NCBI RefSeq assembly: GCF_004216755.1
Contig: NZ_SGWZ01000004.1
Coordinates: 125,144 to 144,058, forward strand
DNA length: 18,915 bases
DNA from: Kerstersia gyiorum
GTDB lineage: Bacteria; Pseudomonadota; Gammaproteobacteria; Burkholderiales; Burkholderiaceae_B
Direction: 5' to 3'
Shown here: in pieces, positions 5,160 to 5,340 of the stretch
Position numbering within the stretch: the stretch's first letter is position 1
Layout of the letters: each line of letters opens with the position of its first letter
Position numbers and translations under genes: made by a program
The notes under the pieces: generated by a model
Databases searched by the model: none
Seen by the model: the letters and a program-made list of their open reading frames with translations, nothing else
Told to the model about the DNA's origin: nothing

Positions 5160-5340
5160 AATACCCCTGCCGCTCGCCGCTAGGCAGGGTTGCAGGGCAA
5201 AGAGACCCTGCAACCCAACCAACAGCGTGTTTTGTCCGCTGAGTGTCAAGGATTCGCTTCGCCGGGTACTCACCCGGTCCCGGCAAGCCGGGCTGCGGCT
5301 TCCGTGCCCGTCCTTGACATGGCACACGCCGTCTGAGTAA
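5160..5340. other. GC-rich, densely self-complementary non-coding element (candidate structured RNA, or ssDNA/attP-arm structure of the phage)
   Basis: Four structures are visible.
- Hairpin A pairs 5165..5171 with 5183..5189 (7 bp).
- Hairpin B pairs 5187..5197 with 5206..5216 (11 bp perfect, loop caaagaga) and shares GGG 5187..5189 with hairpin A.
- A 9-bp outer stem tgtcaagga/tccttgaca (5244..5252 / 5311..5319) encloses two further hairpins.
- Those are ccggg-tactca-cccgg (5262..5277) and cccgg-caag-ccggg (5279..5292); their CCGGG arms can also pair in alternative registers.

The two ~60-aa ORFs in the track here look non-coding. Confidence 0.45.

Follow-up and report, generated by a model that had tools for sequence, protein, structure and literature searches.

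A family of conserved folded elements in filamentous phages, conjugative plasmids, genomic islands and small plasmids: candidate complementary-strand origins

The region upstream of a phosphatase gene in a filamentous prophage of Kerstersia gyiorum contains a cluster of hairpins that is real, conserved and structured, and that represents a new family within a known kind of signals, the initiation and promoter signals of single-stranded DNA. Together with its relatives it makes up a widespread and apparently undescribed family of folded-DNA modules, carried by filamentous phages, conjugative plasmids, genomic islands and tiny plasmids. The reading we favour, and to which we give about an even chance, is that it acts as a portable signal for host-dependent initiation on single-stranded DNA, and that the phage uses it as its complementary (minus)-strand origin. 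No prior description of this sequence family was found in the literature searched, which included the CUP repeats and the repeats of PromA plasmids.

Results

The hairpin cluster of the K. gyiorum prophage

The window, that is, the whole stretch of 18,915 nt that was analysed, holds a filamentous prophage integrated at a tRNA-Cys gene (Table 1). The phage core genes, Rep_trans, DUF2523, Zot and secretin, are all on the minus strand. Core genes of inoviruses have the polarity of the packaged strand. Thus the packaged single-stranded DNA is the minus strand of the window, which is the template strand of the phosphatase gene. The element is the largest structured non-coding stretch of the prophage. 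The 3.98-Mb assembly contains it only once and the chromosome backbone lacks it; being single-copy, it cannot be a host repeat of the REP or MITE type.

The stems described in the first-pass annotation are borne out by reading of the sequence. The 11-bp stem is perfect, the 7-bp stem shares the triplet GGG 5187-5189 with it, and the 9-bp outer stem is formed by TGTCAAGGA and TCCTTGACA. All four CCGGG-type arms were located inside the latter (5261-5266, 5273-5277, 5279-5284 and 5287-5292). The alternative registers suggested for these arms are real as well, as there are three folds inside the outer stem, about 7 kcal/mol apart; in the window, the register conserved in relatives is about 7 kcal/mol worse than the minimum-energy one.

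When positions 5155-5345 were folded, none of 200 dinucleotide shuffles was as good in either RNA or DNA mode. The RNA fold has -90.5 kcal/mol on the plus strand (z -4.47) and -94.1 kcal/mol on the minus strand (z -4.59), and the DNA fold of the plus strand has -48.8 kcal/mol (z -4.68). In a sliding fold of positions 2700-15700 (prophage and cargo, packaged-strand sense) the top structured stretch, the tRNA aside, is 5220-5339 with z of -5.2. The first-pass annotation placed the element in no Rfam family. Indeed, cmscan of the window at the gathering threshold yields tRNA-Cys and nothing for the element, and a scan of positions 5000-5500 with E up to 10 yields three chance-level matches only. 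The lack of coding potential can also be upheld. Open reading frames of 57-63 aa overlap the element, yet they are not credible as coding regions, because unrelated replicons have kept this sequence between their genes, in spacers that are non-coding.

The best promoter match proposed for the phosphatase, TTGACA at 5314, is a perfect -35 box. However, the accompanying -10 candidate agrees with the consensus in three of six positions, and a consensus scan called no promoter. Both TTGACA and (G/A)GTAAGTT are kept in all phosphatase-linked copies: in phages of the window type the 3' arm of helix P1 is followed by 18 nt, the conserved (G/A)GTAAGTT and the phosphatase start. The candidate -35 box of the phosphatase sits in the 3' arm of P1, and folding of P1 on the template strand rebuilds it in double-stranded form. 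Outside the phosphatase-linked copies, no conserved -10 box accompanies the TTGAC of P1.

Table 1. Coordinates of the element and of its surroundings in the K. gyiorum window
Feature	Position	Strand	Basis and remarks
attL, 59-nt direct repeat of the tRNA-Cys 3' half	2716..2774	.	Repeat search; partner at 15577-15635
GmrSD gene, low-GC	2974-5034		Occupies the interval from attL to the element
5' box: 7-bp hairpin CCCTGCC (5165-5171) / GGCAGGG (5183-5189) around the conserved box CGCTCGCCGC (5172-5181)	5165..5189	-	Sequence read and conservation
Hairpin hp1: 11-bp perfect stem GGGTTGCAGGG (5187-5197) / CCCTGCAACCC (5206-5216), A-rich 8-nt loop	5187..5216	-	All minimum-energy folds
Bulged rod, core of the family	5244..5319	- (the sign gives the packaged strand and is not proof of the folding strand)	Alignments A1 and A2, pair counts, covariance model R1
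Rod helix P1 (9-bp outer stem)	5244-5252/5311-5319		
Rod, 10-nt bulge TTCGCTTCGC	5253-5262		
Rod helix P5, 7 bp	5263-5269/5304-5310		
Rod helix P6	5274-5276/5296-5298		
Rod hairpin P3, variable	5279-5284/5287-5292		
Sigma-70-like promoter candidate for the phosphatase: TTGACA (5314-5319), 18-nt spacer, TAAGTT (5338-5343)	5314..5343	+	Sequence read
Metallophosphatase (calcineurin-like), downstream of the element	5374..6057	+	Pfam PF00149, E 1.6e-13
Integrase	14530-15537	+	
tRNA-Cys	15590-15663		

Conservation of the fold

The bulged rod, preceded by a second hairpin (5244-5319 and 5187-5216 in the window, respectively), is shared by 65-76 distinct relatives. Two alignments were considered. Alignment A1 contains 65 distinct cores aligned by MAFFT. 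A covariance model, R1, was built on the rod fold and produced 88 matches, whose alignment is A2. In A2, 84.8% of the cells of the rod are paired, compared to 30-48% when the partners are slid; this alignment is fitted to R1, which favours the fold, and the same trend is observed on the MAFFT alignment. Changes on both sides occur in 16 of the 23 rod pairs of A2, and the covariation score is 0.264 as against 0.04-0.09 in controls. None of 500 shuffles reached the pairing and covariation values observed in A2. In A1, helix P1 is 90% paired, with both-side changes in 5/7 of its pairs. Helix P5 has compensatory variants CGGGTAC/GTGCCCG, CAGGTAC/GTGCCTG, CGACATC/GGTGTCG and CGCCATC/GGTGGCG.

Conservation is not limited to pairing. 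Fourteen positions of A1 are invariant and 27 are near-invariant, the invariant ones being mostly in the 10-nt bulge, CTCACCCGGTC and GGCTGCGGC. These nucleotides suggest that the element is recognised by its sequence, through some component that many hosts share. The box CGCTCGCCGC and the GGCAGGG repeat are kept in related phages, in the copies from genomic islands, in the Pseudomonas aeruginosa plasmid pP33-1 and in small plasmids. A hairpin equivalent to hp1, of different sequence and at the same place, is present in pP33-1, in the inoviruses L196, L197 and L199, and in Pseudomonas phage 97-1.

The arms of the two CCGGG-armed hairpins of the first-pass annotation are present in the window, but the hairpin CCGGGT/ACCCGG (P2b) is not conserved in the second sequence variant. 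The cloverleaf model that includes it was dropped for this reason, and the rod with P5 was adopted instead.

Some features distinguish the strands. In 43 of the 65 sequences, small phages included, P5 contains a T·G wobble on the gene-sense strand, equal to an A·C mismatch on the packaged strand. The invariant CTG, the start triplet of DnaG, is likewise on the gene-sense strand only. Both observations count against an origin acting on the packaged strand. Comparison of the minimum energies of the plus and minus strands gives opposite answers for the core and for the core in its context, and is confounded by G-richness. By analogy with the extrahelical bases of integron attC sites, one may speculate that the A·C position is a strand-selective mark.

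Filamentous phages

Pattern scans of IMG/VR and a phage collection produced a number of compact phages with the element. Two of them, L197 and L199, have terminal redundancy and correspond to circles of 5478 and 6329 nt. Together with L196, they encode Zot and a HUH Rep of the PF23343 family (REP_ORF2-G2P). L195 and L202 have Zot and a Phage_CRI G2P, L201 has genes of the Zot module and a Rep_trans gene, and L203, which is grouped with L201 and the window clade under Rep_trans, has Zot. A divergent element (R1 score 32.7 bits) was found in the cultured Pseudomonas phage 97-1 (OR621023). Overall, the element occurs in at least five inovirus lineages with three unrelated Rep families (Rep_trans, REP_ORF2-G2P and Phage_CRI/G2P). 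With three unrelated families of initiators, it is not an initiator-specific plus origin.

In all 14 phage genomes and prophages examined for orientation (the window, L036, L037, L051, L061, L062, L195, L196, L197, L199, L201, L202, L203 and L205) the element is antisense to the core genes, and thus the packaged strand always carries the same form of it. The chance of such uniformity is approximately 0.03-0.06, if five or six lineages are counted as independent. L196, L197 and L199 have the element in their main intergenic region, directly 5' of rep, and in L199 no ORF of 60 aa or longer is present downstream of it in its own orientation. In phage 97-1 it directly follows the terminator 3' of zot. 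In L061 it retains the backbone position though the phosphatase is absent. Homologues of the window integrase were not found in the compact inovirus genomes. By analogy, the position of the element in compact phages matches the intergenic region of the Ff phages. The intergenic or post-zot placement, the antisense orientation and the variety of Rep families all favour an inovirus minus-strand origin, one of the roles that had been proposed from the window; the priming itself we infer.

The same annotation named two other phage functions. A packaging signal would be consistent with the orientation specificity in phages and with an intergenic hairpin located, as in Ff, on the packaged strand and past the morphogenesis genes. 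However, the phages share both modules, hp1 and the rod, with genomic islands, 3-kb plasmids and conjugative plasmids. These have no coat or assembly genes of filamentous phages and are never packaged, and as the shared function packaging is very improbable indeed. Arm-type binding sites for the integrase or Xis can be rejected, as the element persists beside integrases of only 60-62% identity whose target is tRNA-Met rather than tRNA-Cys, and also occurs in phages without an integrase and in plasmids without an integrase of the phage type.

Plasmids

A blastn search of 72,556 plasmids with phage, island and pP33-1 copies as queries retrieved 64-165 records, the latter number corresponding to the full-length copy. 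Most frequent among these 165 records are plasmids of Xanthomonas (55), followed by Pseudomonas, Escherichia, Vibrio and Klebsiella; by mobility, 91 are conjugative, 27 mobilizable and 47 non-mobilizable. One copy is located upstream of floR (pM3446F).

Conjugative plasmids of 47-50 kb carry seven or eight copies. P. aeruginosa pP33-1 has eight, in both orientations, some of them before genes for a DUF3560 protein and an orphan cytosine methyltransferase. Five of the eight point toward the next gene and three are inverted relative to the flanking operons. If the polarity of transfer is inferred from the position of mobC and the relaxase gene, four of the eight are on the transferred strand in the phage-like form. 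This presence on both strands counts against the origin reading, as does the weak -10 box in the window. In a Burkholderia pseudomallei relative of pP33-1 seven copies were identified by HMM and nine by the covariance-model search. Copies within one plasmid may be nearly identical: three are ~100% identical over 200 nt, and another pair is likewise.

One copy in pP33-1 is within an insert of ~232 bp, upstream of the downstream gene's own sigma-70 promoter TTGTAT-18-TATAAT, whereas the homologous spacer of the B. pseudomallei plasmid has no insert. No clear terminal repeats or target duplication were seen at this insert, in the single filled/empty pair provided by the two plasmids. Gain or loss of the module matches, by analogy, the cassette-like behaviour of single-strand origins.

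The element is also carried by plasmids of 2.7-3.1 kb. The 2953-bp plasmid L185 has, upstream of rep, a central hairpin with a complete copy on either side, the two being inverted relative to each other, and in the 2719-bp plasmid L188 inverted copies of the 5' box and core are upstream of rep. These inverted twins resemble the ssiA/ssiB layout of RSF1010. No rolling-circle Rep was found in the small plasmids, which encode Rep proteins of the HTH type instead.

One possibility is a selfish miniature repeat: the element would pass from one mobile element to another, e.g. by single-stranded transposition or gene conversion, and be of no benefit to the carrier. Near-identical copies in one plasmid, occurrence in both orientations and presence/absence polymorphism between sister plasmids are all expected of such a repeat. 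On the other hand, position and orientation are constant in the tiny genomes of inoviruses from five or more divergent lineages, the host genome has a single copy with none in the chromosome backbone, pairing is maintained despite deep divergence, and no transposase partner was found. A purely selfish repeat is thus quite improbable.

Related prophages and genomic islands

Further relatives were sought in 200 genomes of the same family as the host of the window. In related prophages, the element next to the phosphatase gene is 83-92% identical, and the flanks are unrelated. Two prophages integrated at tRNA-Met (G174 and G038) have a second, direct copy, so that two copies 12-13 kb apart surround the att-proximal cargo. 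An attachment site or a host RNA gene was considered here and rejected, as the true att repeats of these prophages are halves of tRNA-Met lying outside both copies. In these two prophages and in the window, the element borders a variable cargo slot and can be used as an annotation marker of the backbone edge of this slot.

This arrangement could reflect a function of double-stranded DNA, such as a promoter or UP-like module, an array binding a host protein, or a recombination site mobilising the att-adjacent cargo slot. Other arguments for it are the very high conservation of the primary sequence, with its invariant and near-invariant positions, the TTGAC in the 3' arm of P1 of phage and plasmid copies, the direct duplication around the cargo, and the behaviour of the element as an insertion/deletion unit. 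However, the compensatory changes in P1, P5 and P3 are then unexplained if the DNA never folds, no protein is common to all carriers, the insertion in pP33-1 lacks terminal inverted repeats and target duplication, and copies from integrative conjugative elements (ICEs) have no TTGAC in P1. We consider a purely double-stranded function distinctly unlikely.

Outside phages, the 64-nt core was found in 19 of 51 genera. The non-phage genomic copies, all in island-like loci, are located ~240 nt upstream of radC, of DUF3560 genes, or of an ORF of 269 aa that precedes ssb. For radC and this ORF the distance is ~200-240 nt, and the copies have the same orientation as the gene. Their homology with the phage copy spans the whole element, the 5' box included. 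No Rfam family, the radC RNA motif included, was detected in the island copies. As to relaxases near these copies, PF07514 is absent and PF03432 is located elsewhere. Matches to an exact 17-nt pattern in genome contigs are mostly due to chance in GC-rich genomes; the Alcaligenaceae hosts named in this way include Castellaniella, Achromobacter, Pusillimonas and Alcaligenes. When 150 genomes drawn from the whole phylum were scanned with the covariance model, four had the element, which is as expected of a passenger of mobile elements.

The island copies bear on the remaining explanation, a structured RNA transcribed from the gene-sense strand, which had also been listed by the first-pass annotation. 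It could be a cis-regulatory leader or a small non-coding RNA of mobile elements, with junction nucleotides binding a host factor or a ligand. The distance and orientation relative to radC and the ORF preceding ssb are in agreement with this, the wobbles of P5 and others lie on the gene-sense strand, and peripheral helices of variable length combined with invariant junction nucleotides are typical of functional RNAs. The constant orientation in phages fits an antisense or divergent RNA as well. However, the only promoter-like site of the window has its -35 box inside P1, which puts the bulk of the element ahead of the start site, and the strong promoter of pP33-1 is downstream of the element. 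Further, the upstream flanks are unrelated among copies from different replicons, implying that there is no shared promoter; three of the eight copies in pP33-1 run opposite to the operons around them, small plasmids have inverted twins, and no Rfam family matches. A structured leader or non-coding RNA is thus disfavoured, and we regard it as unlikely.

Discussion

A complementary-strand origin is suggested by what the carriers have in common: phages, conjugative elements and strand-displacing or rolling-circle small plasmids all pass through a single-stranded stage that has to be converted to duplex by the host. Moreover, cassette-like gain and loss, Rep independence and orientation specificity, all seen here, are known hallmarks of single-strand origins (sso and ssi), which argues for this reading. 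The motif AAGCGG as a PriA site had no support in the literature searched and is not used as evidence. Background on sso and ssi elements is given in PMC5714925 and PMC7690428.

The proposed mechanism is as follows. After infection, SSB would coat the packaged strand, i.e. the minus strand of the window, whereas hp1 and the bulged rod would keep their fold. The folded DNA would then be recognised, via the invariant nucleotides of the bulge and loop, by an enzyme of the host: RNA polymerase, which acts at Frpo and the Ff origin, or else a primase or primosome. This enzyme would make an RNA that primes synthesis of the second strand. A second role is possible in this phage: as P1 rebuilds duplex TTGACA on the template of the phosphatase gene, the priming RNA might also be an immediate-early phosphatase transcript, similar to that of Frpo.

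The closest functional parallel in phages is the minus-strand origin of Ff (hairpins [B] and [C] of f1/M13/fd). Like the element, it belongs to the packaged strand, is intergenic and comes after the terminator that closes the morphogenesis genes, and consists of adjacent hairpins, one of which contains a -35-like hexamer in duplex form. It is Rep-independent and orientation-specific, and depends on a host enzyme, which is predicted for the element. However, the two have no sequence similarity, and no Ff-like match was found in the phage collection. The element, in contrast to the Ff origin, is GC-rich, consists of a bulged rod and one hairpin without a conserved -10-like element, and is a module common to plasmids and genomic islands.

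RNA polymerase is known to read folded single-stranded DNA, both to transcribe and to prime, at Frpo (Masai and Arai 1997, summarised in PMC11541004, PMC7736820 and PMC12672017). Its RNA is an early message for ssb and psiB, and Frpo/ssi single-stranded promoters of classes 1-3 have been described in F, ColIb-P9 and pESBL (PMC11541004, PMC12672017). The element resembles them in being folded DNA repeated in spacers before establishment or anti-defence genes (the neighbourhood of ssb, the orphan methyltransferase, DUF3560, radC) and in having an outer stem that rebuilds a duplex -35 box on the template strand. By this analogy, a dual role as promoter and source of primers, similar to Frpo, is plausible. 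There are differences as well. The element has no -10 box, either in duplex form or conserved, and P1 rebuilds TTGACA in the phage and many plasmid copies but not in the ICE copies. Unlike Frpo/ssi, its copies occur in both orientations on one plasmid, and it is also found in phages and in non-conjugative small plasmids.

Nor is there a relationship in sequence: among thousands of IncF and IncI plasmids, only floR-linked E. coli records match the element. The lack of sequence similarity extends to every proven ssi and, as with Frpo and the Ff origin, counts against the origin reading. The E. coli matches that were inspected consist of a single stretch of 70-86 nt with the same query span and identity as the match upstream of floR in pM3446F, and one of them is in a 2.7-kb plasmid. 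None of the inspected E. coli matches from the blastn search of 72,556 plasmids, in which copies of the element rather than Frpo served as queries, is in a leading region of the F type.

The sso of rolling-circle plasmids and ssiA/ssiB of IncQ plasmids are, like the element, portable, Rep-independent and orientation-specific cassettes adjoining different replication modules. The differences are that most carriers of the element have no plasmid primase, and that the Rep proteins of its small plasmids are of the HTH type, as compared with the rolling-circle plasmids of sso. Small plasmids of 2-3 kb from the pHW126 family (pIGRK, pIGMS31) have an accessory ssi-like palindrome upstream of iterons and of an HTH-type rep gene; it is non-essential, and its loss leads to multimers and a higher copy number (PMC6854812, bioRxiv 10.1101/2022.12.05.519187). 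Its similarity to the element is a functional analogy only.

In its broadest form, the proposal is that one family of folded DNA provides the complementary-strand start signal for filamentous phages with unrelated Reps, conjugative plasmids and islands, and miniature plasmids across Proteobacteria, and in this phage also a phosphatase promoter active on single-stranded DNA. Taken as a whole this is doubtful, and we offer it tentatively. If it is true, the infecting strand would direct expression of the phosphatase, a possible counter-defence enzyme, ahead of any double-stranded DNA, and this would be the first early-expression device of the Frpo type in a virus.

To our knowledge, minus-strand origins have been mapped experimentally only in filamentous phages of the Ff type, and those of the many Pf-, Cf- and environmental inoviruses have in general not been located. 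The family described here provides a concrete candidate for such a site, with a covariance model and a defined fold, and indicates that start signals of the second strand are exchanged as cassettes between phages, plasmids and islands. Frpo promoters allow genes for establishment or anti-defence to be expressed early and transiently. Should the module likewise start transcripts on single-stranded DNA, this principle would reach beyond the enterobacterial plasmids to viruses, and would explain why cargo such as the phosphatase is placed beside the module in antisense orientation.

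Element copies in prophages and on plasmids

The related prophages L036 and L037, integrated at tRNA-Met, contain two direct copies of the hairpin element each. One copy adjoins the phosphatase gene. The other, 2-2.7 kb past the integrase and separated from the tRNA by about 250 nt, faces the attachment site. The att-proximal cargo, which consists of an HNH nuclease, a CBS-domain protein and a 264-aa ORF, is bracketed by the pair. A further case of cargo adjoining the hairpin module is the small inovirus contig L201, where a serine resolvase and an HNH nuclease (positions 5-595 and 1250-1969) lie next to the element.

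In the genomic-island locus L039 the copy is situated ahead of the ssb operon, and the entire rod, the core of the element, is enclosed by a perfect long-range stem of 24 bp. The resulting hairpin of about 200 nt recalls the architecture of Frpo, the single-stranded-DNA promoter of the F plasmid.

One element copy of about 232 bp is present in P. aeruginosa pP33-1 (L186) and absent from its sister, a B. pseudomallei plasmid (L192), both conjugative plasmids of 47-50 kb. No target duplication is evident at this copy when the two are compared. Two further plasmids, L185 (2953 bp) and L188 (2719 bp), are small; in each of them a central hairpin is flanked by two element copies in inverted orientation, and this arrangement precedes an HTH-type rep gene. 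A stretch of more than 400 nt ahead of floR in A. pleuropneumoniae pM3446F recurs almost unchanged in a Providencia plasmid of 3123 bp (L183 100-700 vs. L184). Judging from this sequence match, the floR cassette seems to have acquired a portion of a small plasmid of this kind, along with the element. The same core fragment, with identical span and identity, is matched in many plasmids of E. coli, Vibrio and Photobacterium.

Coordinates of element copies, repeats and the second phosphatase gene
Feature	Locus	Positions	Strand	Remark
Direct element copies	L036	4852-5009 and 17916-18123
Direct element copies	L037	3636-3869 and 15630-15804
Arms of 24-bp stem, CCGTCTTCCGTGAGTTCCGTCGCC / GGCGACGGAACTCACGGAAGACGG	L039	7553-7580 with 7722-7750
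Filled vs. empty site	L186 vs. L192	16447-16678 vs. 3526-3700
Inverted element copies with central hairpin	L185	333-797
Inverted element copies with central hairpin	L188	341-777
Perfect 21-nt direct repeats, TATTAGCGATTTCACGTACTC	window	6417-6437 and 6711-6731
Tandem 21/42-nt repeats	window	18695-18915		within ORF continuing past window end
Second calcineurin-like phosphatase gene	window	1861-2613	+	immediately outside attL

Other features of the window

A highly stable fold (-36.4 kcal/mol, z -3.2) at 13080-13199, where the Rep_trans gene meets an upstream 86-aa ORF, is a candidate Rep-specific plus origin. The 21-nt direct repeats flank a 77-aa ORF (6464-6697), and the whole arrangement is located between the secretin gene and the ORF at 6050-6400. 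Tandem repeats inside a reading frame, such as those at the window end, are a pattern of repeat-rich surface proteins.

The second phosphatase is 47% identical to the phage phosphatase on the protein level, and the two genes share DNA stretches of 72-86% identity (repeat families D2 and D11). The second gene is not preceded by the hairpin element, and it may be what is left of a previous element that occupied this tRNA site.
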